Positions 20,379-63,323 of a DNA stretch of 64,000 nucleotides are shown here, piece by piece. The translations under genes and the position numbers were made by a program. Under the pieces are notes generated by a model, which saw only the letters and a program-made list of their open reading frames with translations, ran no database searches and was not told the DNA's origin. The stretch spans positions 19,589 through 83,588 of the forward strand of contig CAZVDQ010000003.1 of the NCBI GenBank assembly GCA_964625435.1. The letters are read 5' to 3'. The stretch's first letter is position 1, and each line of letters begins with the position of its first letter. Source of the stretch: an uncultured Mariniplasma sp. (GTDB taxonomy: Bacteria > Bacillota_I > Bacilli_A > Acholeplasmatales > Acholeplasmataceae).

Positions 20379-21329
20379 TTATGAAACTTTTTTAACTAGT
20401 TTGTACATCTCATTTTTTGGTCTGCTTTGACCAATAACGTTAGCGAATGGTAAGTAAACCATTCTTGAATCTCTGACACCTACGCATACTCCGAAGATAC
20501 CATCATTTAATAATTCAACTGCATAAGTTCCCATTCTTGATCCTAGAATACGATCTTCGGGACATGGAGAACCTCCACGCTGAATGTATCCTAAAACTGT
20601 AGCTCTAGAAGAAAATCCTGCTTTTTCAGTAATTTCTTTAGCAAGAGCAAAGGGATCTGCAATCTTTTCAGTGATGACGACAATAGCATGTCTTCTGCCT
20701 TGTTTTTTATGTTCTCTTAATCTTTTAAACATAAGCTCTTTATCCATTGGGTTTTCAGGTGTAATTATAAATTCTGCTCCACCACAAATACCCGCAAACA
20801 ACGCTAAATCTCCACTATGTCTACCCATGGTTTCAACAATACTGCAACGTTGATGAGAATTTGAGGTATCTCTAAGTTTATCAATAGCATCAACGATTGT
20901 TTCAACTGCTGTATGAAATCCAATTGTGAAATCAGTTCCTGCAATGTCATTATCAATCGTTCCTGGTAAACCAATGGTTTTTACTCCAAGTTTAGCAAGT
21001 TCCATAGCCCCTCTATAGGTGCCATCTCCTCCGATTGCAACCAATGCTTCAATTCCTCGTTTATCTAAGTTTTCTTTAGCTTGTATTCTAAATTCTTCTT
21101 GTAAAAATAGAGATGATCTTGACGTGCCTAAAAAAGTACCACCAAGAGATAGCATACCAGAAACACTATGTGAGGTCAAGAGAACCATATCATCATTAAT
21201 CAATCCACTATATCCATCTTTAATTCCGTATATTTTATGTCCATATAATGTCCCTGCGCGAACAACTGCACGAATTGCAGCATTCATTCCAGGTGCGTCT
21301 CCACCAGAAGTTAAAACACCAATTTTCAT
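20379..21329 (-). CDS. pfkA: ATP-dependent 6-phosphofructokinase
   Basis: TSGGDAPGMNAA, GGDGT and PGTIDND (Gly at both phosphoryl-donor specificity positions), MGR, QRGG. Confidence 0.95.
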   Translation of the reverse strand: MKIGVLTSGGDAPGMNAAIRAVVRAGTLYGHKIYGIKDGYSGLINDDMVLLTSHSVSGMLSLGGTFLGTSRSSLFLQEEFRIQAKENLDKRGIEALVAIGGDGTYRGAMELAKLGVKTIGLPGTIDNDIAGTDFTIGFHTAVETIVDAIDKLRDTSNSHQRCSIVETMGRHSGDLALFAGICGGAEFIITPENPMDKELMFKRLREHKKQGRRHAIVVITEKIADPFALAKEITEKAGFSSRATVLGYIQRGGSPCPEDRILGSRMGTYAVELLNDGIFGVCVGVRDSRMVYLPFANVIGQSRPKNEMYKLVKKVS

Positions 21330-21520
21330 CTTTATTATCTCTCCTTACATAAAAAACGTACTACCTCATATATTATAACACATACTATGTATGAAATACA
21401 CTTGTATCGACTGCATTTTATCACTTATGAAAACGATTTTATAGGCTATTCTGCTTTGATTATCTTTAATTTATGGTAAAATAACAAATGGTAAAATAAA
21501 ACAAAAAGAATGGTGATTTT

Positions 21521-35900: not shown

Positions 35901-37088
35901 AAAAGTTAACACAGCTTCAACGATGCCATAAATATTCATGAATTCATCTGACCAATCGATACTCGTAAATAACTCAAGTGCTGCAGCTGCATCAGGATTT
36001 TCATATGGATTACCGTACTCTGTAAATTCTGGTAGGGCAACCTGTAAACCATATTGTGTAGCAAAAGGAATTAAGAAATTTAGTAGATCTGAGTTGCTAA
36101 TATAGATAAATATTTGTTCGATATCATCTAAATTATCACTTGATATCGTATTATAATCGAAATTGTCATCAAGATATCCCCCATCAATCAAAATACCAGC
36201 AATACCAAAAATACCCTCAAGTTCCTCACCAAAATTCAATTGAGTTACCTGATCTGATGCATCTTTAACTTGTGTAGTAAATACACGGTTAAAAATATAT
36301 TGTTCAATCGGTTTTCCACCAATCAAAATATCTTTTGTCATTGAGGATAACCCACCTTGATTCATTTCATTAATATTATCTAAGATGTCTTGAATTTCAG
36401 AAGGAATTGCAATGAGTTGTTGGTTACCGGTGCTTAAAGTCTGATTTGATGTATCATCAATAACGACATCAGTTGAAACGACTGATAAATAACCCGAGAA
36501 AACTAAAACGGGTATTAAAAAGACAAAAGCAACAACGAAGCCTCTAACGGCACCCATTGCTCCTCCAAAAAATCTTCCTAAAACATTTTTCTTAAGTTTT
36601 TTACTTTTAACAAACTTCTTATCTACTAAACCTTTTTCTTCAAATATAACTTCTTGTTTTTCATTTTGTTTTTTCAATAATGCTTTTTTTATACCATGCT
36701 TCCAAATTGGTCTAAAAATCGTTAGTGTAAGTGAAAATTTAATGAATGGATATAAAAGAACAAATGCAATAATTCTCAAAACTAAATCCATGATAGCGAC
36801 AATAAATCCCGATAATGCAGGATCTTCTAAATAAGTGATATATTCTGCAGGGACTAATGAACCTGTATATTTCTCTACGAATTGTAAAAGTGAAGCAAGT
36901 GAAAAGGAGGATCCGAAAATCCAACTAAATGAGATGATAGAAACAATCCACAGAGTAATGACCGTCAAGATTATACTTACAATAGTGAAGTAGGTGGACT
37001 TGCTAGAACCTCGTAAAAATCCAATCAAAAAGTGTATTCCTACGAAAAAGCCGATAACTCCCCATTGAATCATTAAGAATGATGGCAT
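26985..37088 (-). CDS. Giant (3367 aa) acidic tandem-repeat surface protein with N-terminal CvpA-like 4-TM anchor
   Basis: Uninterrupted 10.1-kb ORF. GFLRG and GRFFGGAMGAVRGF motifs resemble CvpA. At least 21 copies of an about 80-aa module IP..AY...RL.D.EI..MI.AL.IL...DVT.GQ...II..LISD.IID. Confidence 0.85.
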   Translation of the reverse strand: MPSFLMIQWGVIGFFVGIHFLIGFLRGSSKSTYFTIVSIILTVITLWIVSIISFSWIFGSSFSLASLLQFVEKYTGSLVPAEYITYLEDPALSGFIVAIMDLVLRIIAFVLLYPFIKFSLTLTIFRPIWKHGIKKALLKKQNEKQEVIFEEKGLVDKKFVKSKKLKKNVLGRFFGGAMGAVRGFVVAFVFLIPVLVFSGYLSVVSTDVVIDDTSNQTLSTGNQQLIAIPSEIQDILDNINEMNQGGLSSMTKDILIGGKPIEQYIFNRVFTTQVKDASDQVTQLNFGEELEGIFGIAGILIDGGYLDDNFDYNTISSDNLDDIEQIFIYISNSDLLNFLIPFATQYGLQVALPEFTEYGNPYENPDAAAALELFTSIDWSDEFMNIYGIVEAVLTFGSVDELMNYADNPELLLEMTPAEAEAFTDIIRAMGDMQTLVLLNAGLGYAVTLDEVQSKITWVDPLDVEAYIQDRLGFILDDPDFFIGEDGEIDRFASLIETIFTDEYGDVDLTELFDSISDPAAFLDAQNPDWIGAIIDKVVDLQLIVEAIPIGVDYGVNTVLGDQMIEEQLAEDITTALNEIEWDAEIMNIGNIYTEALQLGLSTAFGENADTFGFIDEVVANHMTSMRAIVTHIFEDSQVVNVAIEIASPALVDRFVTDDMLNDLINEALISDPVSGVVDFNFGQEVNGLLTILESVYGFTTASELGNFSTMDLDQKVELFSQFGSLTDTEFTAFEDAFKDLQILDRMGISALDYAKDSLGIEELYVPSEVNLGDDVASVLGLAYYAAKYTYDNQADYSSYEDIDFAPLLADDTFRSYLMSTTLENHSNLLFTNIAYNIQRFSEDESMSEYIAIPSTLATEDPEGVVWETEVNAFLGAILDLGASFEGSSVMNFSVHDVLGLTEDTSTASMELFTQFADPLKAEDAFGSLDSSQILRTSLVNIIDTFAGSATESLGFSMTTPEIALDGEMLATGMIVELINGLAIVASDAFETMGVTTLADVQAQEGTDAYLNAYSQLEDESLDALGDITIIRGMLSDVLLNPDMQSYLVDTMNEAQDLFVIDDDFFAVDPILLDIEGAVKAEEVSNLLIAVRSLGVTDSEALSTIGLETVTDLIDRNIDPGTGQDDFDRVFDSGILYITLDKVFQLDAIGTFVADTLSESLGTNMTTFDITPPDAMLGNAIDDEAIEVNRIPKDEFRRMMNSIGVLGDLSTIGLDTFSNLVDPTVPVDDFTTFIASDYIYVILARLFEDEAFGDYIGEMLNGAFGDDPITLTMSAPEDAKGTTGVEEDLMTRTELHNLMVSFDMLGLSDGTDISIATIMGMVGANEDLAGEDDFDRFLESKYLNDKISQLLLSDQIIDLIGAGQFTSADFILPDSATEGAVGEERLTSQEIYDLFAGLNILGLSDFDNVDLGIDTVTSLTETQVNELLDSTYLYVVIDLMIKSQDTLTLPDTAFETSGDFTDMIMKSEVVDVINAINILDIDLDNIDPSTITIGQITDVLAQTDSAIVQSLLSQAIIDALGEDSIPDDAYEGDPINNLISSAEIDALIAALDILGGGDPSVTITEVDVTTITVGDVDALSDTESTIIKQMISDAIIDALGVGLIPDDAYGLSSGSSNGIILLGAGTVQLAGTAAPRLSDAELQAMIDALVILAGDPDVLVTDVSTDVSVDKAIQLKGTQSFIIKQLISDNLVDTLGASSMPADAFIDGDVDGRLLDAEIDALIDALEILAGDDTTILVTAISTDINVGQVSELALLPSLVTKQLISDQVADQIDPLDEGKIPLEAREDGIATNRFTDEEITAMVEALQILSGYDDTVLVTAISTDVTVGQVKDFKGTASYIIKQLVSDALIDTLGAAAIPDEAHIDGDSNKRLLDSEIDAMIDALGILGEDTDLVTAISTDVTVGQAKDLNLLPSTITKQLISDAVVDTIDPLDEGKIPSEAYIGGLSTNRLTDAEISAMIDALDTLSGHNDLVLVANISTDVTVGQVKEFKGTPSYIIKQLVSDTVIDTIGAAKVPNESYIGSDPLNRLTDTEIDAMIDALDILGEDTELVTTISTDVNVGQAVAFKGTPSYIVKQLLSDAIIDAIDPTDAGKIPDEAHILSDPLNRLTDAEIDSMIDAIEILANGDHNLAVTLISTDVTIGQVKDLNELTSSITIKLISDAIIDAVGLANVPDDAYLSDTPGNNLKPAEVDEMVLALEILAGKVAGDPEDEVDDVLVASVSTAVTNGQTQQLKTNASVIIKQIVSDAVVDMIGVGDIPVASYRNSDPADRLTDSEIVSMIDAIDILADGNDALLVTAIGTDVTIGQVKGLNALTSLITEKLISDSIIDAVSLANVPDDAYLSDIPGNNLKSAEVDEMILALEILAGKVAGDPEDEVDDVLVSSVSTTVTNGQTQQLKTNNSVIIKQIISDAVVDMIGVGDIPVASYRNSDPADRLTDSEITAMIDAIDILANGNDALLVSTIGTDVTIGQVKGLNALISLITEKLISDSIIDAVGLANVPDDAYLSDTPGNNLKPAEVDEMILALEILAGSVIPGDVDAVLVSSVSTNVTIGQAQDLDTSVTGSSIIKFIISDSIITMITAPKIPADAYNTTYPGRLSDQEITDMLGVLSVLGDSADPVSTIDTDINIGQLKSLNASPSLIIEKLISDSIIDAVGVSNVPLDAYVNGDSNNYLTENEVSAMILALEILAGKVTGDPADAVDHVAVSSVSTDVTIGQTKALDISGTGSSIIKFIISDSIITMITAPKIPASAYHATYTDRLSDQEISDMLDVLGYLGAPTDPVSTIDVDITIGQLKDIQTSPSIIMTKLISDSIIDAVGLANVPDDAYLSDNSNNNLKATEVTNMISALEVFAGVVVPGDHDSTKISGITTTNVTVGQTQDLSTNGSAIIKFIISDSVITMFGVANIPSEAYHTTHTDRLSDEEIVAIADALEVLGAPGDSVNALSTDVTVGQTQALDTTATGSVIIKQMISDSVVDMLGAPRIPDTAYIASNPANRLTDSEIGYMQESLLPLAGGNSSTLVSAITVTESTLSVATLKSFPDQSIIMNRMISTALIDGIDNIPDESYTELVNKKDIKRPEIDNILDALEILNIGTSGAGSITTAQITFAQLDQVVALGTTDSVNYPDGYSPLIVHILSEPMIAAVSDVRGGFNYGVPTTAYRNTYDLKFDELTKLIDGLKVIGNVPTNDPATTTLADAVVGLDPSAFGPTMLANLIAVDSLVIYRMISIGINDSNIDTDESHTVLGDQNYDSGLPALPAIYDIKIAEMGHIVVSMNILSITDIANVASQITVVKLKALTPIEIELLVEAISDGPNTIIYYMIADIIDSSLTAFQKASLVANNDYVMDGPTPVRIKRASISAALLLL
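29470..30660 (-). repeat. Near-identical 492-bp (164-codon) tandem duplication, about 2.4 copies, inside the giant gene
   Basis: GGA(G/A)TATCTGAGAGATAAGC(A/G)TCATCAGGTACATTAGC recurs at 29557, 30049 and 30541 (exact 492 spacing); antisense shadow ORFs at 29683 and 30175 show the same period. Ends approximate. Confidence 0.9.
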
Positions 37089-41708: not shown

Positions 41709-43781
41709 CTATGTCATTTTACGATATAAATAGTAACAAGCTCCAATCCCAATTAATGTAACCATTAAAACGGGCAAGTAATCTGTGATTTCATTTGTAA
41801 CTTCTCGAGGAGTAATAATTACTTCCCTAACTTGTGTTGTATAGTTACCTCTTTCGTCAGATATAACATAAGTTACTTCTTTTTTTCCTGGATGACTAGT
41901 ATCCAAAATTTCAGGAAATACATGGATTTCTATTTGATTAAGATTATCGAATGTTGTTATTCCTATCAACGGATCAAAATATTCACCTGTATAAAGCGTC
42001 ATTTGTGTCATTTCAACTGATGGAGGAGTTCTATCATCAATTGTGATATATAATTTCTTTTCTGTCCTATTCATCGAATAATCTTGCAACTCATAAGAGA
42101 TAACATAAACACCTAACGATTCATAATCTATATCACCATTTATTGTCATATCATCAACCGACAACATATCATAATTATCAGAAATATCTGAAATATATGA
42201 TGTGAGATTAACGGGTTGTGAAAAGATTTCAAGTGTCAATAATGATTGCTTTAGTGTAAATTCAGGTTCAATTATATCAATAACTATGATTGTTGTCTCT
42301 AATTCCCTAATGTTATTGGATAAATCATATGCGTATACCCAAAGAGTATAAATTCCAATGTTCTCATAATCAACCAATGTATCATCAATTTCAATTGAAA
42401 TTTGATTTACACCATCATAGTTATCGTTAGCTTCAAAATAATAAGTGACATCTTTTGCCATAAAATCAGTGATGATGATGTCATTAAGCTGATTAATCAT
42501 AGGCGGTATACAATCAACAATTTCAACATATGTTCCCAAAAAAGCTTTATTTCCGGATTCATCTGTGACCTCAAAAATAATAGGATATTTTCCAACTTTA
42601 TCCATTTTTACAGATTCACTCATTTTAAAAATCAAATCTTCAAAATCGTCATAATTATCTCCATATTCAACATAATCAATGTAGAAAGGTTCAGCATCAA
42701 AAACATCAAATATTAGAGGAGAAATAAGATGAATAGTTGGTTTCTCATCATCAATCACACTAATTTTCATCTTGAGATCAAAACAATTACCCGATAAATC
42801 TTCAATGTGATAATACACGTCATAGACACCTAACACATTAAACTCGATATCAAACCAAAATTGAACATCCAAAATACTAACTTCATCATAATTATCACTC
42901 ACACTCAATATATAATCGTAAAAGTCAATTTCACTTGGAGATGTGAAAACCGGAATTGGGGGCGGTTGACTTTTAACAATGATAGATGGAGATTCATCAT
43001 CAACAATAATAAGACTATAAAATCTTTCTGTTGACAAAAGATTCTTATCTATTGCAGTAAGTAAAACCACATAAGTTCCTAATTTTTGAAAGTCCACATG
43101 CGTTGTATCAACTACAACATCGGGAAACGGATCATCATTATCAGAAATATCAAAATAATCTTGCCACTCAAATGATTTTCCAAATGGTAAAATCAATGCT
43201 TCTTTTTGAACAATTACCGGTGCGAGATAGTCATATATTTCAAGCGAAGATACTCCTTGTGATATATTACCTGATGAATCTGAAATTTGATAGAATATAT
43301 CATAGGTCCCAACCTGATTTAATATGACTTCAAAGCTATTAACACTTACATTGAGATACTCGGAGTCATCATAATTATCAGATATAATTATTCCCTCAAA
43401 CAAATCTGGCATACGCTCACCTAAAGGTATCCTAAAGATGGGTAATTGGATAATTGTTGGGGAAATAAGATCGACGATATTAAAAACAATATCTTGAGTT
43501 TGGACAATCTGATATGTGGGAAATGTGACGCGATATCGAATGGTAAACGTTCTAATGTAATTTGTTGTGACTACCGAAAAAAAGGTGTGATCTACACCAT
43601 CTCGCTCATAGTACATAAGTGGATCATCAACTTGGATATTTCCGATAAATAGTTGAGCTTCGGGTAGTTCTTTATAATCATCTATTTGTGAGAATAGAGG
43701 AATATCAAGAAAATCATTAATCCAATCAACCCTTACTGATAAAATTGTAAAAAAACTAAAAAAGGATAATAAAAAGGACAT
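41709..43781 (-). CDS. Surface protein with about 7 bacterial Ig-like (DUF5011/HYR-like) repeats and C-terminal TM anchor
   Basis: Repeats start D..(A/S/K)P.I and contain D.YD and G.Y.V.Y...D.SGN; hydrophobic N-terminus; C-terminal TM followed by RK. Confidence 0.8.
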   Translation of the reverse strand: MSFLLSFFSFFTILSVRVDWINDFLDIPLFSQIDDYKELPEAQLFIGNIQVDDPLMYYERDGVDHTFFSVVTTNYIRTFTIRYRVTFPTYQIVQTQDIVFNIVDLISPTIIQLPIFRIPLGERMPDLFEGIIISDNYDDSEYLNVSVNSFEVILNQVGTYDIFYQISDSSGNISQGVSSLEIYDYLAPVIVQKEALILPFGKSFEWQDYFDISDNDDPFPDVVVDTTHVDFQKLGTYVVLLTAIDKNLLSTERFYSLIIVDDESPSIIVKSQPPPIPVFTSPSEIDFYDYILSVSDNYDEVSILDVQFWFDIEFNVLGVYDVYYHIEDLSGNCFDLKMKISVIDDEKPTIHLISPLIFDVFDAEPFYIDYVEYGDNYDDFEDLIFKMSESVKMDKVGKYPIIFEVTDESGNKAFLGTYVEIVDCIPPMINQLNDIIITDFMAKDVTYYFEANDNYDGVNQISIEIDDTLVDYENIGIYTLWVYAYDLSNNIRELETTIIVIDIIEPEFTLKQSLLTLEIFSQPVNLTSYISDISDNYDMLSVDDMTINGDIDYESLGVYVISYELQDYSMNRTEKKLYITIDDRTPPSVEMTQMTLYTGEYFDPLIGITTFDNLNQIEIHVFPEILDTSHPGKKEVTYVISDERGNYTTQVREVIITPREVTNEITDYLPVLMVTLIGIGACYYLYRKMT

Positions 43782-53967: not shown

Positions 53968-53991
53968 AAAAAAGGCAAAATCTGCCTTTTT
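53968..53991 (-). terminator. Terminator of the aro operon
   Basis: AAAAAGGCA-GATTT-TGCCTTTTTT overlapping the aroC stop codon. Confidence 0.7.
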
Positions 53992-54979
53992 ACTGATACG
54001 CTTTATTTAAAAGAAATAAGTCAGCTAAAACAATGGCAAGTGCATTTTCTAAAACAATTCCAACTCTTCGTGCAATACAAGCGTCATGTCTTCCACCAAC
54101 TTTTAGATCTGCAATCTCTTTTGATTCAAAATCGTAGGTTTGCTGTTTCTGTTGAATGCTCGATGTTGGTTTAATGAATACTTTAACTACTAAATCGTTC
54201 CCATTAGACAAACCACCAGAGATTCCTCCACTATGATTTGTCTTGGTATGTCCATTTTCATCGATTATTTCGTCATTGAACTCACTACCTAACATCAATA
54301 ATCCAGAAAATCCAGTTCCAATTTCAACACCTTTAACTGCAGGTATAGAAAACATCATCTTTCCTATCTCTGAATCTAATTTGTTAAAGAATGGTTCTCC
54401 AAGTCCAATAGTCATGTTTTTAACTGATAATTCTATTACTCCTCCAACTGAATCACCCTTTTTAATAATTTCTTCTAAGTAATGATCAAGTTTGGACATA
54501 TCAGTTAATGAACCAACTTGAATAAGCTCATGATGAAATTTAAATGGTAACATCATTTTTGCAATTGCTCCAGCAGCGACGATAGGAGCAGTTAATCTTC
54601 CTGAAAATCTACCTCCACCTCGAAAGTCCTGAAAGCCATTGTATTTTTTTTGTGCAACAAAATCAGCATGCCCTGGTCTTGGTTGCTTTTTTAGATGTTC
54701 ATAGTCTTTAGATCTTAGGTCATTGTTTTCGATCATCAAGTGAATTGGAGATCCAGTTGAATATCCATTAAAAACACCAGATGTAATTTCAAATTGATCC
54801 ATTTCTTTTCTTGAAGTTGTTCCAATTGCACCAGACCGTCTTTTTAATAAATCATCCTTAATTTTAGTTTCATCAATCATAATGCCAGAAGGCATGCCGT
54901 CGATTACAACTCCAATTGCCTTTTGGTGAGATTCACCATATAAAGTAACTTTAAAAATATTGCCGTAACTATTCATCAT
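53990..54979 (-). CDS. aroC: Chorismate synthase
   Basis: GESH, RPGHAD, GGGRFSGR.TA, N.SGGI.GGLSNG, KPTSSI, GRHD.CI. Confidence 0.97.
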   Translation of the reverse strand: MMNSYGNIFKVTLYGESHQKAIGVVIDGMPSGIMIDETKIKDDLLKRRSGAIGTTSRKEMDQFEITSGVFNGYSTGSPIHLMIENNDLRSKDYEHLKKQPRPGHADFVAQKKYNGFQDFRGGGRFSGRLTAPIVAAGAIAKMMLPFKFHHELIQVGSLTDMSKLDHYLEEIIKKGDSVGGVIELSVKNMTIGLGEPFFNKLDSEIGKMMFSIPAVKGVEIGTGFSGLLMLGSEFNDEIIDENGHTKTNHSGGISGGLSNGNDLVVKVFIKPTSSIQQKQQTYDFESKEIADLKVGGRHDACIARRVGIVLENALAIVLADLFLLNKAYQ

Positions 54980-55757
54980 AAATCACTTCCTTCAATGTTT
55001 TCATCAGTTCTTTAGTTAATTCTATTGTTTGATCAAACCAAATTTCTTCGCTCTTTATTGCTTGAATAATGAGCATATGAAGTCCATTATACCCTTTTTT
55101 ACTATCTTTCATAATTTGAGTTACTTTAGGATTATAAACTAGGTCAATCACTATTTTTCCAGCAACTTCTTCTTTTGTAAGTATAGAAACATTCGTATTA
55201 GGATATGTTCCAATGGGTGTTGCTTGTACAAATATATCCACGTGCTTCGTATCAATATCTTTATATTCGATGACATGTTCAAATTTATGTTTATTACTTG
55301 TTAAATTTCTTGTAACAACAGTAACATTAGCACTTGAATCACGCAGTGCATGATAAGCTGCTTTCGCGCCCCCACCTGTGCCCAAAATATAAACATTTTT
55401 GGATTCTACTGAAATATGGTTTGTTTCTAATAAGCCAATAAATCCATCATAATCAGTATTATCACCAACTACTTCATCATTTCTGTAATAGATCGTATTC
55501 ACTGCACCAATCTTATTTGCTTTGTGAGTTAATCTATCCATATATGGGATAACTCTTTCTTTATAAGGCGTAGTCACATTAAATCCGTGGTAATACCCTT
55601 CCTTGAGTAAATCAATTAATTCAGGAATTTCTTCGGCATCAACATTTAACAGTTCATAAGAAATATCAAAATGAAGTTTCTTACTTATGACCTGATGAAT
55701 TAAAGGTGATTTGCTGTAATTGATTTGATTACCAATGAGTCCAAATCGTAAGCTCAT
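54969..55757 (-). CDS. aroE: Shikimate dehydrogenase
   Basis: S.SP.IH, GFNVT.PYK, GAVNT, NTDYDG, G.GGGA, DLVYNP, NGL.ML..QA. Confidence 0.93.
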   Translation of the reverse strand: MSLRFGLIGNQINYSKSPLIHQVISKKLHFDISYELLNVDAEEIPELIDLLKEGYYHGFNVTTPYKERVIPYMDRLTHKANKIGAVNTIYYRNDEVVGDNTDYDGFIGLLETNHISVESKNVYILGTGGGAKAAYHALRDSSANVTVVTRNLTSNKHKFEHVIEYKDIDTKHVDIFVQATPIGTYPNTNVSILTKEEVAGKIVIDLVYNPKVTQIMKDSKKGYNGLHMLIIQAIKSEEIWFDQTIELTKELMKTLKEVIYDE

Positions 55758-56008
55758 TTTTGATTCGCCTTAGAAAGATGCATCATTTCTTTGATAAAAG
55801 ATTCATAGAGTGGCCATTGTTTGTCATCATTAAATTCGATTCTTCTTTTTTCCAACAGTTCTTTTTCTCTTTTTTCATCTAAAACAGGTAATTGATTTGC
55901 TTTTTTATATAGTCCGATTTGTTGTGAGACATTCATTCTTTTTTTAAATAATTCCATCATTTTTCGATCAATTTTATCGATTTCAATTCTTAATAATTCA
56001 AGATTCAC
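55754..56008 (-). CDS. Monofunctional chorismate mutase (AroQ class)
   Basis: LELLRIEID.ID..M..LF..R......IG.YK.....PV.D..RE. AGGAGG RBS favours GTG 56008. Confidence 0.9.
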   Translation of the reverse strand: MNLELLRIEIDKIDRKMMELFKKRMNVSQQIGLYKKANQLPVLDEKREKELLEKRRIEFNDDKQWPLYESFIKEMMHLSKANQK

Positions 56009-57257
56009 GAATGTCACCTCCTAAGGATTTATATACTTTGAAAAAATTAGGATAAGATTTTTTGACAACATCAGCATTTGTTATTGTCACAGGTCCATCA
56101 GCCCGAATTGCTGCAATCGCAATTGCCATAGCAATCCGATGATCACCGAATGAATCAAAAGTCTGATTACCTCTTAATTTCTTTTTACCCGCGATTATTA
56201 CCGTATCATCTATCATTTTAATATCTACACCAAACTTGATGAGTGTCTGATACATTGCGTCGAGTCTGTCAGATTCTTTTATTCGAAGTCGAGAAGCGTT
56301 TGAAAATGTTGTTGTCTTAGAACTGAGGGCTGCTAAAACCATTAATATCGGTCCAAGATCGGGGATTTGACTTAAATCAATTGGAATTCCATATGTTTCG
56401 CTAGGTTTAACCTTATATCTTCGGTCTAAATTCTTATAATCAATTTTGCCTTCCATCTCTTTAATAATATCAACAATCTTATAATCGCCTTGTTTACTAA
56501 TAGGATTTAAATGCGTAAGTTCAATGGGTCCACCAATTAATCCAGCAACCATCCAAAATGCAGCTTGTGAATAATCTGCTTCAACCGTTGCTGTTTGAGG
56601 TGTATAGGTTTGTCCACCTTTGATATAAAAATATTGATCAACTTGTAAGATGTGAATACCAAATATCTTTAAAACTTCTAATGTGAGATCTACATACCCT
56701 TTTGATTCAAGTGGTGTTAATAATTCAATCACAGAGTCTTTTTTAAGTCTTGGTAATGCAAAAAGCAATCCTGTGATGAATTGTGAACTCACATCTCCTC
56801 TCATAAAGTAATATCCAGCCTTAAGTGGCCCTTTAAGTTCTAAAGGAAGATTATCTTCTTCTAATTTTTTATAGTAAATGAGTTTATGATCGAATAAATC
56901 AAAATAGACATCTATTGTTCTTTTTGGTAGTCTACCTTTTCCTGTAAAAATTACTTTTTCATTTTGCAAAAGTGCTAAAGGAATCATAAATCTTAACGTA
57001 GAACCTGACTCATTACAATCAATTGTAGGTTGATTTAAGATCCAATCATGTCCAGTAACCTGTTCTTCATTAAAAGTAACACCAAAAGCACTGAGTGCCT
57101 TTTTGGTAGATTCTATATCATCAGATTTTAAAACATTTTTAATTGTAGAAGTCCCTTGAGCAAGACCGGAAGCAATAATATATCGATGTGATAAAGATTT
57201 AGAAGAGACAACGGGAACGACACCTGTTAAAGGTTTAGGATTAATGGTGATATTCAC
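55998..57257 (-). CDS. aroA: EPSP synthase
   Basis: SKSLSHR, NESGSTLRF, SSQFITGLL, R.KESDR, DHRIAMA, V.KSYP.F. Confidence 0.97.
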   Translation of the reverse strand: MNITINPKPLTGVVPVVSSKSLSHRYIIASGLAQGTSTIKNVLKSDDIESTKKALSAFGVTFNEEQVTGHDWILNQPTIDCNESGSTLRFMIPLALLQNEKVIFTGKGRLPKRTIDVYFDLFDHKLIYYKKLEEDNLPLELKGPLKAGYYFMRGDVSSQFITGLLFALPRLKKDSVIELLTPLESKGYVDLTLEVLKIFGIHILQVDQYFYIKGGQTYTPQTATVEADYSQAAFWMVAGLIGGPIELTHLNPISKQGDYKIVDIIKEMEGKIDYKNLDRRYKVKPSETYGIPIDLSQIPDLGPILMVLAALSSKTTTFSNASRLRIKESDRLDAMYQTLIKFGVDIKMIDDTVIIAGKKKLRGNQTFDSFGDHRIAMAIAIAAIRADGPVTITNADVVKKSYPNFFKVYKSLGGDIRES

Positions 57258-58268
57258 TTAAATATCTCCTTCCTTCAACACAATAATGTCTGATTCTCCA
57301 ACTTTAGGAACAACAATAAAGTGTAGTCCTTCAGCTAAAAACTTTTTATCATGAATAATATCCTTCTTATAATCTTCCATGACCAATAAAGGTTCTTCAA
57401 CCAACCCTCTTTTTAGAAGTAAAGATTTAACTTCGTCATATAATTGTTGATGTGTTTCATGGAGTCTAATTCCTAATTCTAATGCCATAAGCATCCCATA
57501 ACTAATCGCTTCGCCATGTTTATATGTTTCATATTGATGTCTTTTTTCAATCGCGTGTCCAAAAGTATGTCCAAAATTCAAAACCATGCGTTCTTTTTGA
57601 TCATAAGGATCTAAAATGACTAGTTCACGTTTGACTTGAATAGACATAATGATTTCATCTTCAGTGACGCGCTCATGTGATAATAGATGGTGATATAATT
57701 TTTTATCTCCAATTAAACCAGCTTTAATCATTTCAGCTAATCCGTTCGTATATTCTCTTTTTGATAATGTATTAAGAAAATGCATATCTATATATACGAA
57801 TTGAGGATTATAAAAAGCTCCGACGAGGTTCTTACCTTCATCTAGATCAATTCCAACTTTACCACCTATACTACTATCTACCATGGCTAATAAAGTTGTT
57901 GGTATTTGAATAAAGGGGATTCCTCTAAAAAGAGTTGCTGCTACAAATCCAGTGAGATCTCCAACGACACCTCCGCCTAAAGCGATTATTAAATGATGTC
58001 TTTTTATTTGTTTTTGAACCAATTCTTGAATGACTTTCTGATAGGTCATAAAAGATTTTGATTTTTCTCCTGGTTCAACAACAACAAAAAGAGTATTGAA
58101 ATCTTTAAGTGAGTCTTTCAATTTTTGGGCATATAATTTGTTCACATTTTGATCAGTGATGACAAAAACATCATGTCCGTGATAAATTGATTTGACGTAC
58201 TTATTTAGATTCAACAATTGATTGTTCTCGATAAAAATGTCGTATTCAGGCATTTTAATGAACATCAA
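57258..58268 (-). CDS. aroB: 3-dehydroquinate synthase
   Basis: GE..KS, ALGGGVVGDL.GF, PTTLLA.VDSS.GGK, GKN.VG.F, LNFGHT.GHA.E, HGEA. Confidence 0.97.
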   Translation of the reverse strand: MMFIKMPEYDIFIENNQLLNLNKYVKSIYHGHDVFVITDQNVNKLYAQKLKDSLKDFNTLFVVVEPGEKSKSFMTYQKVIQELVQKQIKRHHLIIALGGGVVGDLTGFVAATLFRGIPFIQIPTTLLAMVDSSIGGKVGIDLDEGKNLVGAFYNPQFVYIDMHFLNTLSKREYTNGLAEMIKAGLIGDKKLYHHLLSHERVTEDEIIMSIQVKRELVILDPYDQKERMVLNFGHTFGHAIEKRHQYETYKHGEAISYGMLMALELGIRLHETHQQLYDEVKSLLLKRGLVEEPLLVMEDYKKDIIHDKKFLAEGLHFIVVPKVGESDIIVLKEGDI

Positions 58269-59085
58269 AATCCATCCTCTTTTCCTTTGCTTCTTTGAGG
58301 TATTTCATTAGTGTTTCTTTATCATCGAGTAGAATAAGTTCTTTTACATATTGAAGTTCCTTAGTAAAATCATTTATCTTACTAACTAAAGCTTCTTTAT
58401 TTTCTAAAAATAGTTCACTCCACATCATTTCATTGATTTTAGCAATTCTTGTTAACTCTCTAAATGAATCACCGGTAGCTTCTTTTGTTTCTTTGTATTG
58501 ATCACTTTGCATTAAAGCGACAGCTATCACGTGTGTTAATTGACTAGTAAAGGCAATGAGTTCATCGTGTGTTTGTGCATTTACTACTGTTATTTTACCA
58601 AATTTAAGGTTATTTGCGATAAGTCTCAATACTTTTTGATCCTTTTTATGACTTCTTTTACCTGGTACTATTATAAAATTAGCATTTCTAAACATTCTTT
58701 CATCTCTGGAATCAAAACCACTGGTTTCTTTTCCTGCCATTGGATGATGTGAGGTATAGGAGATGCCTTCAGGTAATAAATTTTCAAGTTGTTCCATCAT
58801 CCATACTTTAGTTCCACTGACATCTGTTACGAATTGTCCAGACTTAAATAACTTCAAATGATTTTTTACAAATTCAATATTGTTTTTTGGGTACAAAGAT
58901 AAAATCACAAGATCAGCTTTTGATAATTGTTCAATCGTATTATCTGATTCAATAAATCCAAGTCTAATCCCTTCACTAATGGGTCTTTCACTTCTATTGT
59001 AAGCATAAACTTTATGTCCGTTTTTATGGAGACCTTCGGCATAGGATGCTCCAATAATCCCTAGACCTACAATGAAGATTTTCAT
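58255..59085 (-). CDS. tyrA: Prephenate dehydrogenase
   Basis: VGLG.IG.S Rossmann motif, D..GTK, HPMAG.E..G, HD...A..SQL.H, TR.A..N..MW. Confidence 0.9.
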   Translation of the reverse strand: MKIFIVGLGIIGASYAEGLHKNGHKVYAYNRSERPISEGIRLGFIESDNTIEQLSKADLVILSLYPKNNIEFVKNHLKLFKSGQFVTDVSGTKVWMMEQLENLLPEGISYTSHHPMAGKETSGFDSRDERMFRNANFIIVPGKRSHKKDQKVLRLIANNLKFGKITVVNAQTHDELIAFTSQLTHVIAVALMQSDQYKETKEATGDSFRELTRIAKINEMMWSELFLENKEALVSKINDFTKELQYVKELILLDDKETLMKYLKEAKEKRMDFDVH

Positions 59086-60101
59086 TTTATTTTTTTCCCT
59101 AAAACATCAGAGACTTTGGTTAGTTCAGCCATCATCTGACTAAATTTGTTTAATTTTAGTGACTGTGCTCCATCACTTAATGCATGTTCAGGATCATGAT
59201 GAACCTCAACAATTAAACCGTGCGCACCAACAGCAAGACCTGCAAGTGATAGTTTTTCAATCATATCCCATCTTCCTGCAGCATGTGAAGGATCAATGAT
59301 CACTGGTAAGTGGGACAATTCCTTAACAGCAAGAACTGCACTAATATCTAATGTATTTCTTGTATATTTTTCATATGTGCGAATACCGCGTTCGCATAAA
59401 ATAACATTATCATTACCACCAGCCATAATATATTCGGCTGACATCAGCCACTCTTCTATGGTTGCTGATAAACCTCTTTTAAGCAAAATAGGTTTATTAC
59501 ATTTACCAAGGGCTTTAAGTAAATGGAAGTTTTGCATATTTCTAGCTCCGACTTGAATGATATCCACATATTCTTCAAATAATGGGATTAAATCAGCACT
59601 AGGTATTTCAGTAACAATCGCCAATCCAGTTTCATCGCCAATTTTCTTTAATAACTTTAAACCTTCTACTTCTAGTCCTTGAAAAGCATAAGGTGAAGTT
59701 CTTGGTTTATATGCTCCCCCTCTTAAAAGATGAGCACCAGATTTTTTGACACTTTTAGCAATGACTCTTAATTGTTCTTCGGATTCAACTGAACATGGAC
59801 CAGCCATAATAACAAACTGGTCTCCTCCGATTTCAATACCATTCTTTATTTTTACAATCGTATCTCTTTTTTTGAAACTTCGACTGGCTTTTTTAAATGG
59901 TGTTGAAACCCTCGTTACTTCTTTAACACCCTCGAATGCATATAAGTCACTTGGATCAATTGCTAACGTGTCACCAATAATACCAAACACACGCACATTA
60001 TCAGTGGATGCATCCTTGATTTCTAGATTCTTTGCTTTTAAGTAGTCAACAATCTTATCATACTCCTTTTTAGTGGAGTTCTTTTTCATTTGTATTATCA
60101 T
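59082..60101 (-). CDS. aroF: DAHP synthase, class I-beta with N-terminal ferredoxin-like regulatory domain
   Basis: AGPCSVES, RGGAYKPRTSPY.FQG, QVGARNMQNF, LKRG, ERGIR, D.SHA.G, EVH..P..ALSDG; AGGAG RBS. Confidence 0.95.
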   Translation of the reverse strand: MIIQMKKNSTKKEYDKIVDYLKAKNLEIKDASTDNVRVFGIIGDTLAIDPSDLYAFEGVKEVTRVSTPFKKASRSFKKRDTIVKIKNGIEIGGDQFVIMAGPCSVESEEQLRVIAKSVKKSGAHLLRGGAYKPRTSPYAFQGLEVEGLKLLKKIGDETGLAIVTEIPSADLIPLFEEYVDIIQVGARNMQNFHLLKALGKCNKPILLKRGLSATIEEWLMSAEYIMAGGNDNVILCERGIRTYEKYTRNTLDISAVLAVKELSHLPVIIDPSHAAGRWDMIEKLSLAGLAVGAHGLIVEVHHDPEHALSDGAQSLKLNKFSQMMAELTKVSDVLGKKIK

Positions 60102-60125
60102 ATCTCATATCTCCTATGTTTTAAT

Positions 60126-60155
60126 AAAAAAATCCCTGAGAGGAACCCCAAGGAT
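60126..60155 (-). terminator. Attenuator terminator in the aroF leader
   Basis: AUCCUUGGG-GUUCCU-CUCAGGGAU (9 bp, 2 G-U) followed by U7, about 25 nt before the aroF start. Confidence 0.8.
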
Positions 60156-60221
60156 GATGATTAATCATTTTTTGGCCGTTCCTTTATTCGCTCAAAAAGG
60201 AATGCCTTGCAATCCTTTTTT

Positions 60222-60266
60222 CTAATAATATGCGTAATAATAGACAGCTTTCATTATTTTTAACAT
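60222..60266 (-). CDS. Tyr-rich leader peptide MLKIMKAVYYYAYY* (predicted attenuator peptide)
   Basis: GAAAGGGA RBS 5 nt before ATG; 5 Tyr codons in the last 6 sense codons; lies between the promoter and the leader terminator of an operon containing tyrA. Confidence 0.85.
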   Translation of the reverse strand: MLKIMKAVYYYAYY

Positions 60267-60291
60267 AGAAATCCCTTTCTTTGTTTGTTTT

Positions 60292-60320
60292 ATCGTATCA
60301 CATTCATTGTCAAAAGACAA
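60292..60320 (-). promoter_or_regulatory. Promoter of the aro operon leader
   Basis: TTGTCT (60320-60315), 17-nt spacer, TG-A-TACGAT extended -10 (60297-60292). Confidence 0.6.
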
Positions 60321-60368
60321 TATTAGACTATAAAATTAAATTTTTTCGTTTTTTTTTATTTTTGGTAT

Positions 60369-60414
60369 TGTGTTTTGCACAGTAACGTTATATAATGGTA
60401 GTGTGCAAAACACA
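60369..60414. promoter_or_regulatory. 13-bp inverted repeat flanking the padR -10 (candidate PadR operators)
   Basis: TGTGTTTTGCACA (60369-60381), 20 nt containing TATAAT, TGTGCAAAACACA (60402-60414). Confidence 0.65.
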
Positions 60415-60429
60415 GTAAGGAGGTATATC

Positions 60430-60753
60430 GTGAACACTCAATTTAAAAAAGGTATATTGGAAATGTGTGTGTTATCTATCATTAACAACCGAGATATGTA
60501 TGGGTATGAAGTTATCGAGAAACTCGCAAGTGATATTGACGTGAATGAAAACACAGTCTATCCAATTTTAAGAAGACTGACCGGTCAAGGATTGTTTGAG
60601 ACCTATATTGAACAAACCAATATTGGAGCTCCACGAAAATACTATCAAATTACCAAAGTCGGAAAAGAAAGATTAGATGAGTATGAAACTGAGTGGAAAA
60701 CATTTTTAAAAGGAGTATTTAGATTATTAGGAGGGAATAACAATGAAAGCTGA
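60430..60753 (+). CDS. PadR family transcriptional regulator
   Basis: QFKKGILEMCVL, YGYE, ENTVYP.LRRL, PRKYY.IT..G. AGGAGG RBS gives GTG 60430. Confidence 0.92.
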   Translation: MNTQFKKGILEMCVLSIINNRDMYGYEVIEKLASDIDVNENTVYPILRRLTGQGLFETYIEQTNIGAPRKYYQITKVGKERLDEYETEWKTFLKGVFRLLGGNNNES

Positions 60754-61837
60754 TTATATTAAAATATTGAAGAATCAATTAGAAGAATTTGACGCGAGCC
60801 GTGCAGACCTAGACGAAATTATCAATGATTATGAACAACTCTACGATGATGCACTCGCAACTGGCAAAACAGATGATGAAGTATATAATTTTTTAGGTGA
60901 TCCAAATAGGGTTGCATATGATTTGATTGATACACTCAAAATCAAACATCATAAAGATAATAGAAATAAAATAGTTGCTTTAATGCCCTTTATTTCCGTT
61001 ATTATCTATATGATTTTAGGGTTTGGCTATGGTTGGTGGAGTACAGGATGGTTAGTTTTCCTATTAATTCCTATTTCTGGAATAGCATTCAATACAAATT
61101 TTAAAAATGGATTTATTGCGTTAACTCCATTTATCAGTGTCCTTGCTTATTTGATTTTGGGTTTTGTCTATGATTTGTGGAACCCAGGTTGGTTGGTCTT
61201 CTTCTTGATTCCAATGACGGCCATTATCTTAAACACTAGATTTAAAGACATGTTTATAGCACTATCACCATTTGTTGCTGTCATAACATTTATGCTTCTA
61301 GGAACCTATTATGACTTATGGAATCCCGCATGGTTAATCTTTTTGATTATTCCTATGCTTGGCATTTTGCAAAAAAGAAACAAGGTTCAAATGCTCATTT
61401 TTGAGTTAACATTTATTGCAGCTATTGCATTTTATCTCTACATGGGATACATTCAAAACAATTGGGCTATAGGAGGTTTAGGATTTATTCTTCCAGTAGC
61501 AACCGCCATTCTATTTGGTGATGTAACTTTTGCTTGGAATATGCCAAAAGGTGGAGAACGTAAAAAAGTAATTTTATTACTATTAACTATTTTGTTCTCT
61601 ATTATAGTATTCTTAGTTCTAGGCTTAGTACTTAATGGATGGGTATATGCTTGGCAGATATTCCTGTTAATTCCTGTTGTATCAATTATTAGTTTTGATA
61701 AGTTTAGATTTACATCAATCTCACCATTTGTTGCAGTTATTCTCTTCTTTTCAATTGGATATTTCTTTCACGTATTCCAGTTATCTTGGTTAGCATTCTT
61801 AATCATTCCAATGGCTGGGATTATAGAAAATGCATAA
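60743..61837 (+). CDS. HAAS (DUF1700-like) domain membrane protein with six about 47-aa TM-hairpin repeats
   Basis: N-terminal Y...L...L......DEII.DY.......G....EV...LGDP; repeated PF......LG....W...WL.F..IP. Confidence 0.8.
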   Translation: MKADYIKILKNQLEEFDASRADLDEIINDYEQLYDDALATGKTDDEVYNFLGDPNRVAYDLIDTLKIKHHKDNRNKIVALMPFISVIIYMILGFGYGWWSTGWLVFLLIPISGIAFNTNFKNGFIALTPFISVLAYLILGFVYDLWNPGWLVFFLIPMTAIILNTRFKDMFIALSPFVAVITFMLLGTYYDLWNPAWLIFLIIPMLGILQKRNKVQMLIFELTFIAAIAFYLYMGYIQNNWAIGGLGFILPVATAILFGDVTFAWNMPKGGERKKVILLLLTILFSIIVFLVLGLVLNGWVYAWQIFLLIPVVSIISFDKFRFTSISPFVAVILFFSIGYFFHVFQLSWLAFLIIPMAGIIENA

Positions 61838-61855: not shown

Positions 61856-61906
61856 AAAAAGATTCCTTTAGCATTCACCTTTGGATGCTAAGAGAATTTT
61901 TTTTTT
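61856..61906. terminator. Bidirectional terminator
   Basis: TTAGCATTC/GGATGCTAA stem with A and T tracts between convergent genes. Confidence 0.6.
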
Positions 61907-63323
61907 ATTTCTCGCAAGAGTTTAATGTCTTTAGAAGTGATTTCATTGCTTGTTTTATTTCACCAATTTCTAATCCTGAATAACCCAATACAAGTGTGGG
62001 TTTATCCTTAATTTCTGAGTTTTTTAGATTGTAGGATTTCAAGCCCGTAACATAAATATTGTTTTTCATTATATGATTCACAATCATTTCTTCAGCTATA
62101 ACAGAGTCAATTTCCATTAGAAAGTGAAGCCCTGTATCATATCCTTTAATTTTTATATTTGGATACAATTCGATCGTTTTAATAATTATTTCAATCTTTT
62201 CTCTATAGGCTTTTTGCATGCGGTTTATATGTCTTTCAAAGAAACCTTCATGCATAAATTTATACATAACAAATTGTTCAAAATTTGGAACTGTACATCC
62301 GTGATATGTCATCATTTTCTGGTATTGAGATAGTAATTTTTTTGGTAAGACCATATAATTCATACGAAATGATGGGGCTAAAGTTTTAGTAAATGTATTC
62401 ATGTAAATGACTTTATCGCTATGATCAAACCCTTGAAGCGCTGGGATAGGTTTTCCCTGGAATCTAAATTCACTGTCATAGTCATCTTCAATGATATATC
62501 GCCCAATAGAGCGGTTTGCCCAATTAAGTAGTTCGTAACGTCTTTGAATAGGCATTACAATTCCCATCGGAAATTGATGAGAGGGTGTGATATGAACAAC
62601 TTGCGCATTTGTATGCTTAAGTTCATCAATAATGATTCCTAAATCATCAAGTGAGACTAGAGATAACTTAACATTGTTTCCTTGATAGATTTGATAATTT
62701 TTCTTATAGCCAGGATTTTCAATTGCATAGTGTTTATCTCTACCTAATAATTCAATCAATATATTTATTAATGATGAACTTCCTGAACCAATAACGATTT
62801 GATCCTCATCTGCTTTTATACCCCGATACAATTCTAAATATCTTGAAATTTCTCTTCTAAGCAAATTTAGTCCTTGAGGATGAATCATATTTAACATTTC
62901 ATGATGATTTTCAGAAAGCACTGTACGAGAGAGTTTTGCCCATGTCATATTAGGAAATAATGATGTGTCAACTACATTCGTTTTAAATGCATATTGATAT
63001 GTCGGTTCTTCCTTAATACTTCTTCTTTGTTCTTGAAGAATTTCTCTTTTATTCGTTTCGATAAGTTCTACTTTCTTATCAACAAAATATCCTTTTTTTT
63101 CAATTGAATAAACATATCCTTCAGCAATTAATTGTTGATAAGCTGCCTCAACTGTTAAAGGACTTAGTTTAAGATCTTGTGCTAATTTCCTTTTTGAAGG
63201 CAACTTTTGTCCCTCGATATACTTATCTTCGATGATTAATGTTTTGACGTGTTTATATAAAGAAACATAGAGTGGTTCTTTCTTTTTTTTACTTGAAATA
63301 TAATCAAACATCATATCACCCAT
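61905..63323 (-). CDS. pdxR: MocR/GabR family regulator (GntR wHTH + PLP-binding domain), PdxR
   Basis: KLPSKR.LA..L..S..TV..AY.QL.AEGY, TPSHQFP.G, IEDDYDSEFR; divergent from pdxS. Confidence 0.88.
   Translation of the reverse strand: MGDMMFDYISSKKKKEPLYVSLYKHVKTLIIEDKYIEGQKLPSKRKLAQDLKLSPLTVEAAYQQLIAEGYVYSIEKKGYFVDKKVELIETNKREILQEQRRSIKEEPTYQYAFKTNVVDTSLFPNMTWAKLSRTVLSENHHEMLNMIHPQGLNLLRREISRYLELYRGIKADEDQIVIGSGSSSLINILIELLGRDKHYAIENPGYKKNYQIYQGNNVKLSLVSLDDLGIIIDELKHTNAQVVHITPSHQFPMGIVMPIQRRYELLNWANRSIGRYIIEDDYDSEFRFQGKPIPALQGFDHSDKVIYMNTFTKTLAPSFRMNYMVLPKKLLSQYQKMMTYHGCTVPNFEQFVMYKFMHEGFFERHINRMQKAYREKIEIIIKTIELYPNIKIKGYDTGLHFLMEIDSVIAEEMIVNHIMKNNIYVTGLKSYNLKNSEIKDKPTLVLGYSGLEIGEIKQAMKSLLKTLNSCEK

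Follow-up and report, generated by a model that had tools for sequence, protein, structure and literature searches.

The locus described here raises the question of how tyrosine biosynthesis is controlled in a lineage related to the Mollicutes. The stretch of DNA that was analysed, 64,000 nucleotides (nt) from an uncultured Mariniplasma sp. of the Acholeplasmataceae and hereafter called the window, carries on its minus strand an operon for the shikimate and tyrosine pathway that begins with aroF and tyrA. Directly upstream of aroF lies a leader (60126–60320, in the window coordinates used throughout) with a short upstream open reading frame (uORF) rich in Tyr codons, segments that can pair in alternative ways, and an intrinsic terminator. 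The original prediction, made from the letters alone, took this leader for a Tyr-codon attenuator of the aro/tyrA operon and proposed a search for Tyr-rich uORFs and covarying stems in relatives. Both were found, and they support the prediction: 34 distinct leaders conserve the uORF, and the antiterminator and terminator folds are both compensated. The conserved reading frame and the folding behaviour of the RNA indicate that the leader is very probably a ribosome-mediated attenuator that reads the charging of tRNA-Tyr.

The leader and its reading frame

Direct reading of the minus strand recovered all features of the original prediction at its coordinates. The uORF (MLKIMKAVYYYAYY*, 60222–60266) comprises 14 codons and a stop codon, with its ATG at 60266 and TAG at 60224–60222. 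It reads ATG TTA AAA ATA ATG AAA GCT GTC TAT TAT TAC GCA TAT TAT TAG, so that five of the last six codons encode Tyr, and the peptide is without Phe. The regulatory codons TAT TAT TAC GCA TAT TAT occupy 60225–60242, with Tyr at codons 9–11, 13 and 14. A Shine-Dalgarno site (GAAAGGGA, 60272–60279) is present 5 nt 5' of the ATG. Among 1111 short ATG reading frames in the window (8–30 codons, both strands), runs with at least four Tyr in six codons occur at two loci, of which the first is the leader uORF and the second is antisense within a giant gene.

The RNA that follows the uORF can fold in several mutually exclusive ways. Hairpin A:B (60194–60220) begins 1 nt past the stop codon and is formed by segment A (AAAAAGGAUUGC), the loop AAG and segment B (GCAUUCCUUUUU), which ends in an invariant CCUUUUU; the hairpin is recovered by RNAalifold. 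The stretch between this hairpin and the terminator is GAGCGAAUAAAGGAACGGCCAAAAAAUGAUUAAUCAUC. The spacer and segment C (GCGAAUAAAGGAACGGCCAAA, 60171–60191) form a contested strand that can have Z, B or D as its partner. In B:C, UUCCUUU (60202–60196) is complementary to AAAGGAA (60185–60179), and in the C:D antiterminator AGGAAC..CCAA..AUGAU pairs with AUCAU..UUGG..GUUCCU (60183–60141). Segment D (AUCAUCCUUGGGGUUCCU, 60141–60158) supplies the 3' side of the antiterminator and shares nucleotides with the 5' arm and the loop of the terminator. Segment Z (GCUGUCUAUUAUUACGC, 60232–60248) lies within the uORF itself, at codons 7–12, and pairs with the spacer and C unless it is covered by a ribosome. 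The intrinsic terminator (60126–60155) has a 10-bp stem (AUCCUUGGGG/UCUCAGGGAU), the loop UUCC and a U7 tract; its hairpin spans 60155–60132 with an energy of −10.9 kcal/mol, the U run reaches 60126, and it ends 25 nt ahead of the aroF ATG (60101).

Compared with dinucleotide shuffles, the 171-nt leader folds unusually well, with −42.3 kcal/mol versus −28.3 ± 3.7 for the shuffles (z = −3.78; none of 200 as good). A pattern scan found two terminator-like sites in a 1-kb region, the leader hairpin included, versus 0.3 expected in shuffles. No Rfam family reached its gathering score anywhere in the 64-kb window, and in the 600-nt region around the leader (59900–60500) no T-box or Rfam leader family appeared at E ≤ 10. 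The 18 sub-threshold Rfam matches at E ≤ 10 do not include Trp_leader, Phe_leader, His_leader, Leu_leader, Thr_leader or the leu/phe leader.

A promoter can be proposed upstream of the uORF. It consists of a −35-like hexamer TTGTCT (60315–60320), a 17-nt spacer and an extended −10 region (TGTGATACGAT, 60292–60302) that includes TG-A-TACGAT at 60300–60292; the assignment of the −10 hexamer is ambiguous by 2 nt (GATACG or TACGAT). With 8 of 12 matches the promoter stays below the threshold of a consensus scan, and its assignment is based on positional conservation in the relatives, where the region has the form TTGTnT ... TRTGATAnnnT. Most relatives have TTGT(C/T/A)T equally far from the −10 region, and T(G/A)TGATA(C/A/G)nnT is kept at the −10 position in all leader-bearing loci.

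Conservation in relatives

Loci around aroF homologues, 160 in number, were collected from genomes and metagenomes and are referred to by L numbers. A profile scan of genome contigs with a protein alignment gave, among the 80 matches listed, about eight Acholeplasmatales loci, most of the matches being from Clostridia, while a metagenome scan with a single aroF protein gave the useful relatives. The closest aroF proteins (76–96% identity) belong to metagenome-assembled genomes (MAGs) of Acholeplasmataceae and 'Tenericutes' and to Peloplasma aerotolerans.

The 34 distinct leaders precede aroF-tyrA in Acholeplasmataceae-like genomes and metagenomes, and all of them have a Shine-Dalgarno site, an ATG, Tyr codons, the common chain of pairing segments and a terminator; the hairpin with its U run was present in 32 of the 32 leaders examined in detail. 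Every locus with an aroF of at least 70% identity and enough upstream DNA carries a Tyr-rich uORF in the same place. So do Acholeplasma oculi (L003), UBA4853 (L004) and several loci of 61–67% aroF identity (L005, L121, L126/L133, L137, L138, L145). The leader of Peloplasma aerotolerans, a cultured isolate with assembly GCA_030012175.1, is MFNIQKAVYYYAYC and scores 143 bits with covariance model R3, which is described below.

The leader peptides have 11–16 codons with 2–6 Tyr codons (median 4) that start 5–8 codons before the stop. Their N-termini diverge freely, as in MLKIKKAG.., MFRSNKAG.., MLSIHRSIS.., MRHLQFAH.. and MTHLFNAS... Tyr makes up 28.8% of the leader residues versus 4.2% in the proteins of the window, and is encoded 100 times by TAT and 32 times by TAC. 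Phe is not enriched (4.7% versus a background of 4.4%), and 16 of the 34 peptides are without it. The Shine-Dalgarno site of the relatives is AAAGGTGA or AGGTGA at equal spacing to the ATG. That reading frame, Shine-Dalgarno site, ATG, Tyr run and stop are conserved across diverged nucleotides is hard to explain without translation of the uORF.

Some leaders depart from the common pattern. Variants at L126/L133, L137, L145 and L138 read ..NEWYYPHNLK and ..NKWYYPHSLK (both with Trp plus two Tyr), MALLIGYYYPS and ..FNYYGEYLK; these, and those at L099 and L103, retain A:B, a strand resembling C and the terminator, and are matched by models R2 and R3. R1 and R3 gave no match (E > 1) to L003 and L004, the leaders of A. 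oculi type, and R2 matched L003 weakly (20.8 bits); their membership was assigned by manual reading and duplex energies. Upstream of aroF in the rumen-type Acholeplasmatales loci (L007, L008, L119–L125 and L127–L136, mostly from rumen metagenomes) there is no Tyr uORF, CATTCCTT motif or T-box. These leaderless loci retain aroF-tyrA, and often another gene ends just 5' of aroF.

Alternative folds and their compensatory changes

In the window the duplex energies are −12.8 (A:B), −12.7 (B:C), −15.0 (C:D) and −14.9 kcal/mol (Z:C). Over the lineages they range from −10 to −14 for A:B, −9 to −16 for B:C, −9 to −19 for C:D and −10 to −19 kcal/mol for the terminator stem D:E. Every lineage keeps the same chain of words, with A as AAGGA.., B as ..UCCUUUUU, C as ..AAGGA.., D as ..UCCUU/GUUCCU.. 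and E as ..AGGGAU. In an alignment-free comparison, shuffled versions of C attained both the B and the D pairing energies in at most 1% of trials for each sequence.

Covariance models were built from the main clade and all leaders were realigned to each fold. The final alignments were made at stricter E-values and without reverse-strand matches to the palindromic A:B hairpin. Weak matches of this kind, over A:B at 60169–60262 on the plus strand of the window and at equivalent sites in relatives, are an artefact because AAAAAGGA...UCCUUUUU is nearly palindromic. For the fold A:B + C:D (model R1, 28 sequences) 91.3% of the cells are paired and 10 pairs changed on both sides, with a shuffle mean of 3.3 and 0–5 pairs in slid controls. 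For B:C + D:E (model R2, 31 sequences) the values are 97.5% and 13 pairs, with a shuffle mean of 2.5 and 1–5 pairs after sliding. In the third fold, Z:C + A:B + D:E (model R3, 31 sequences), 90.4% of the cells are paired and 21 pairs changed on both sides, with a shuffle mean of 11.4; here 77 cells changed on both sides versus 10–21 in slid controls. In none of the three cases did any of 500 shuffles reach the observed number.

The individual helices contribute as follows. The terminator stem is paired in 99.6% of the cells and 8 of its 9 pairs have compensatory changes, and A:B is paired in 91–94% of the cells across alignments. Helices 2–4 of C:D are 84–97% paired with three compensatory pairs each, and Z:C has compensatory change in 14 of 15 pairs (alignment A9). 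Some compensatory changes can be given as examples. In L112 and L115 a change from AUUCC to ACUCC in B is accompanied by GGAAC to GGAG(G/C) in C, and in L115 also by GUUCCU to (U)CUCC in D. In L121, which has a wholly different terminator, CCAA in C became CCAC and UUGG in D became GUGG. L113 and L116 differ by U-A versus C-G in an extension of B:C (GUGCAU/AUGUAC against CACAU/AUGUG).

The pairing of Z adds a segment to the five of the original prediction, all of which are present; the sixth had been missed. In the minimum free energy (MFE) structure of the naked RNA, in the window and in most relatives, the 3' half of the uORF pairs with the spacer and C, in the window as GCUGUCUAUUAUUACGC with GCGAAUAAAGGAACGGC. 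The helix is long, surrounds A:B and does not disturb the terminator. It has been re-invented in other clades, as UUUCCUAUUA/UAAUAGGAAA in L113, GGCCCUC../..GAGGGCG in L112 and GCGCAUUAUUAUUACG/CGAAUAAUAAGGAGCGC in L115.

The CCUUUUU of B (60200–60194 in the window) is invariant in every leader, and its partner run in A varies and is often unpaired. The A:B hairpin with its U5 run resembles a pause or weak-terminator signal, at which RNA polymerase would perhaps wait and so be synchronized with the ribosome.

Ribosome position and the proposed switch

Constrained folding with ribosome masks, which had been suggested as a check, reproduces for the window the two states that the original prediction described. 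A ribosome at the stop codon gives B:C plus terminator as the MFE structure, whereas one at the first Tyr codon gives A:B plus C:D without the terminator. The probability of the terminator is 0.33–0.34 in the former state and 0.09 in the latter. A ribosome on the last two Tyr codons masks A as in the stop state (0.34). Because stalling there mimics the stop state, the YYY triplet at codons 9–11 is the effective sensor.

In view of the above, a scheme with three states can be considered. Transcription would start about 20 nt upstream of the 14-codon uORF and yield an RNA with the six segments Z, A, B, C, D and E. In the first state the ribosome is absent or has left; Z would pair with the spacer and C around A:B, D would be free, and D:E would terminate transcription. 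In the second state Tyr is plentiful and the ribosome at the stop codon would cover A, with a mask of about 10 nt past the stop, so that B captures C and D:E again terminates. In the third state Tyr-tRNA is scarce. The ribosome would stall with a YYY codon in its A site, covering Z but not A, with its 3' edge 2–11 nt before the stop; A:B would then lock B, C would pair with D, and polymerase would read through into aroF-tyrA and the remaining shikimate and tyrosine genes. Translation of the uORF, stalling at its Tyr codons in vivo, kinetic coupling and tyrosine-responsive read-through are all steps that we infer. The stop and stall states thus stand as first proposed, while the constitutive read-through that the earlier logic implied for untranslated RNA does not, since Z:C would let such RNA terminate.

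Several observations weigh against an attenuator that reads tRNA-Tyr charging. The support for it is wholly comparative and computational, the latter by folding. From a plain MAFFT alignment with RNAalifold only A:B and the terminator emerge, C and D being misaligned between clades, and the covariance-model alignments are fitted to each structure, which biases them toward pairing; given the shuffled and slid controls, we would argue that the covariation signal is real. The Tyr codons also lie within the Z:C pairing, and their nucleotide conservation is perhaps partly structural. At equilibrium the states of the window are told apart modestly (0.33 versus 0.09). The terminator probability falls on stalling in the clade of the window only, and in divergent clades (e.g. 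L112, L113, L115, L121) the terminator dominates every ribosome state. When truncated transcripts of the window are folded with a ribosome on the stop codon, the MFE structure is still C:D. For the model to work, B:C or Z:C would therefore have to be trapped kinetically, and on these calculations the switch must be kinetic, like that of the classical attenuators. Two leaders, L099 and L103, have no more than Tyr-Arg(CGA)-Tyr as their putative sensor. Finally, control by Tyr alone would be awkward if the organism makes Phe or Trp from the same pathway.

Alternative explanations

Four other explanations were weighed against an attenuator sensing Tyr-tRNA. The leader could be a protein- or ligand-binding RNA switch, in which a factor at the A:B hairpin or at the GGCAUUCCUUUUU element picks C:D or D:E and the uORF is incidental or merely tunes the response. 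Such a factor would account for the conservation of GCAUUCCUUUUU far beyond pairing needs, with CCTTTT columns that are invariant while the partner run in A varies, and the recurring words AAGGA/UCCUU are similar to Shine-Dalgarno and anti-Shine-Dalgarno sequences. A candidate factor is at hand in the PadR-family regulator that is divergently encoded and syntenic in Peloplasma; PadR proteins, however, bind DNA and not RNA. A complex aptamer-like conserved core is absent, the conserved structure being one of simple alternating helices without a match to an Rfam family, whereas the reading frame, Shine-Dalgarno site, ATG, Tyr run and stop position are kept across lineages that differ in nucleotides. 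This makes an RNA switch of this type unlikely.

A second possibility is that Phe is sensed. This has been proposed for the uORFC-13-1 motif, a family of 24 representatives whose discovery began with Acholeplasma laidlawii PG-8A (Brewer et al. 2021, RNA Biol 18:2417, PMC8632094). Outside Acholeplasma the motif is known only from environmental sequences; it invariably precedes aroF, adjoins an intrinsic terminator and includes candidate −35 and −10 boxes, a ribosome binding site, a start codon and one extra covarying stem (PMC8632094). Its authors suggested uORF attenuation via the speed of phenylalanine incorporation, which would control the terminator, with a U run that codes for at least one Phe (PMC8632094). 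The proposal deserves attention since it was made for what is apparently the same motif. About half of the Tyr-rich uORFs do have one or two Phe codons, often as codon 2, and segment B starts with AUG in L003 and L004, both of the A. oculi type, where AUGCAUUCCUUUUUAUAG could be a mini-ORF (MHSFL*) with the AAGG of segment A ahead of it. We guess that this mini-ORF is one possible source of the published Phe reading. However, in the window and most relatives B (sequence AAGGCAUUCC) contains no AUG, and the invariant CCUUUUU lies past the stop codon of the conserved uORF. The absence of Phe from the window peptide and from 16 of the 34 leader peptides, its frequency close to background, and an operon that has tyrA and no prephenate dehydratase also speak against Phe as the signal. 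We consider Phe sensing very unlikely. The published assignment is not supported by these sequences, the conserved and enriched codons being those for Tyr.

Highly improbable, in our judgement, is a sensor of the TnaC type, in which free tyrosine or some other ligand, and not a lack of charged tRNA, makes the nascent YYY(A/G)Y peptide arrest its ribosome. In favour of this reading, the main clade shows fair conservation of the C-terminal motif A/G-x-YYY-A/G-Y. Across clades only the Tyr codons persist, and their flanks vary freely (SYYYYYQN, HYYYVYD, WYYPH). The polarity would also be wrong: stalling leads to read-through, so abundant Tyr would switch on an operon for its own synthesis. Finally, that the terminator is partial and constitutive and that the uORF and the alternative pairings arose by chance deserves almost no credence: TAT-rich runs and AAGGA/UCCUU words arise easily in DNA of 33% G+C and equilibrium folding favours the terminator in many relatives whatever the ribosome mask, but three exclusive folds are each compensated well above shuffled and slid controls, the reading frame is conserved in 34 variants, and shuffles of C rarely reach both pairings.

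Operon and genomic context

The genes downstream of the leader, identified as open reading frames and by Pfam, form the operon aroF-tyrA-aroB-aroA-chorismate mutase-aroE-aroC (53990–60101, minus strand), after which recG and plsX follow. AroF is a DAHP synthase with an N-terminal ferredoxin-like domain (PF00793 and PF18152), tyrA encodes prephenate dehydrogenase and the chorismate mutase is of the CM_2 type. The Pfam assignments show no prephenate dehydratase gene in the operon, and neither pheA nor trp genes are present in the 64-kb window. aroF and tyrA are adjacent in every leader-bearing locus. DAHP synthases that carry such a domain (Thermotoga type) have Tyr as their main feedback inhibitor. 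Such inhibition would fit control by Tyr at two levels, of enzyme activity and of transcription.

Upstream of the leader, a PadR-family regulator and a multi-pass membrane protein with a HAAS domain are encoded divergently (60370–61837, plus strand). Peloplasma aerotolerans has the pair in synteny with its aro operon too (L161, 1–1160). Past it lies a MocR-type regulator with a GntR helix-turn-helix and an aminotransferase class I/II domain (61905–63323, minus strand). Elsewhere the window contains a single reading frame of 3367 codons (26985–37088, minus strand), a surface protein with Ig-like and internalin domains (41709–43781), and a region (17704–22765) where pyruvate phosphate dikinase adjoins two divergent phosphofructokinase paralogues of 316 and 414 residues. 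The latter cluster would fit the pyrophosphate-dependent glycolysis described for Acholeplasma.

Aromatic-codon leaders in other bacteria

Outside the Mollicutes-related lineages, uORFs rich in aromatic codons and followed by strong intrinsic terminators were also observed upstream of aroF (L058, L067, L064, L010, L009/L053/L077 and L148/L154). In L058 the uORF lies about 180–115 nt upstream of aroF. The Oscillospiraceae leaders are MANLFFAAEYYYYYLYSYNFE and MITSATRYYYYFWSF..., that of Alkalibacter is ..AYFYGYGFSYYYSYGYF..., that of Ructibacterium ..EYYFFYFCFSFFGYGYF... and that of Clostridium spp. ..MFWGFFFSAGYF.... Brachyspira has ..SIYAYYFFYYGV (L026/L054), where the terminator scan found no terminator. 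No Rfam family matches these non-Mollicutes leaders. The Clostridium loci L009, L053 and L077 combine mixed Phe/Trp/Tyr leaders with aroF-aroB-aroA and have no tyrA beside aroF. Tyr-dominated leaders (L058, L064, L067, L010 and all Acholeplasma-type loci) precede aroF-tyrA. In this small sample leader composition seems to track operon content, and judging from such sequences many Clostridia may control aroF through leader peptides.

Significance

The mechanism proposed here is a textbook one and the candidate motif is already in print, so the element is not categorically new. The original prediction had left its novelty to a literature check. The check was warranted, and attenuation by a leader peptide had already been proposed for the lineage (Brewer et al. 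2021, PMC8632094). What is new is that Tyr is assigned as the sensed residue, that six segments form three mutually exclusive folds, each with covariation, and that the family now reaches more distant Acholeplasmatales-like lineages, which have the WYYPH and YYYPS variants. For a predicted attenuator the evidence, in the form of these three folds and a conserved reading frame, is unusually complete.

We found no characterised Tyr-codon attenuator in the open-access literature, where the one related case to emerge was the aroR leader of Corynebacterium glutamicum, which responds to Phe. To our knowledge, the amino acids for which a leader-peptide attenuator has been characterised are Trp, Phe, His, Leu, Thr and Ile/Val; Tyr is not among them, and a Tyr attenuator would fill this gap. 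We incline to the view that the leader is the first tyrosine-specific ribosome-mediated attenuator, that it operates in a lineage related to the Mollicutes by a logic of three suitors (Z, B and D) for the one strand C, that the published Phe assignment is wrong, and that, taken with the leaders of Clostridia, Bacillota-related bacteria commonly attenuate their shikimate pathway in a ribosome-coupled manner. The correction of the published motif assignment in favour of Tyr over Phe is likely.

If the proposal is true, shikimate attenuation would be coupled to the ribosome in a group that is often regarded as uncoupled in transcription and translation. There is a debate on this subject, in which uncoupled transcription in Bacillus stands against the coupled expressome of Mycoplasma. 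Since the element needs a ribosome that keeps pace with RNA polymerase, it would be a natural read-out of coupling in an organism of the Acholeplasma/Peloplasma type. It would also supply an annotation for how the aro/tyrA operon is regulated in this lineage, which includes cultured carriers of the leader (Acholeplasma oculi ATCC 27350 and Peloplasma aerotolerans).

Comparison with known systems

The leader very probably belongs to the same family as uORFC-13-1, since it is matched by the published description. It lies directly upstream of aroF and before a terminator, with promoter boxes, ribosome binding site and start codon, and the lineage fits: the closest aroF proteins are from Acholeplasmataceae, Tenericutes and Peloplasma, and A. 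oculi (L003) and Acholeplasmataceae MAGs carry the leader. The differences are that the window uORF has no Phe codon and that the U run (60198–60194) is past its stop codon, and that one extra stem was published whereas three exclusive folds of six segments are resolved here. The motif is absent from Rfam 15, and we found no later paper that mentions it.

The aroR-aroF system of Corynebacterium glutamicum (Neshat et al. 2014, as summarised in the review PMC11802643) is the closest experimentally studied analogue. There, an aromatic-codon leader precedes a DAHP synthase gene and stalling enhances transcription. The Phe-Tyr-Phe sequence of the AroR leader responds to Phe limitation, and Tyr availability is reported to be without effect (PMC11802643). 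The phylum and the RNA are different ones, and aroF has no tyrA beside it according to that review.

Ribosome-dependent transcription attenuation also exists in Bacillota and their relatives. His-leader attenuators have been predicted in Firmicutes including Erysipelotrichales (PMC9413887), and ribosome-mediated attenuators are known in B. subtilis for bmrCD (PMC4191407) and yxjB (PMC6851288). These respond to other amino acids or to antibiotic signals and are unrelated in sequence to the leader described here.

For aromatic and aminoacyl-tRNA synthetase genes in Bacillota, the usual sensor of tRNA charging is the T-box (RF00230). It shares with the proposed attenuator the input, a ratio of charged to uncharged tRNA, and the output, an antiterminator versus a terminator. 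The sensing is different, since the window leader would act via a translating ribosome and not by direct binding of tRNA. The leader was considered as a T-box and this was rejected, as it has no specifier loop or T-box sequence and no match to RF00230 (the window at gathering score; 59900–60500 at E ≤ 10).

The classical enterobacterial attenuators are trpL, pheL-pheA, hisL, leuL, thrL and ilvL. The proposed Tyr-sensing leader is different from these in the amino acid that is sensed, in its Acholeplasmataceae lineage and in the absence of an Rfam leader match at E ≤ 10. In place of their four-segment scheme of 1:2, 2:3 and 3:4 pairings, it has a strand C with three competing partners. The common elements are a short translated leader with tandem end-product codons within the first pairing segment, alternative hairpins and a terminator. 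As in trp and his, an untranslated leader would terminate transcription and a stalled ribosome would give read-through.

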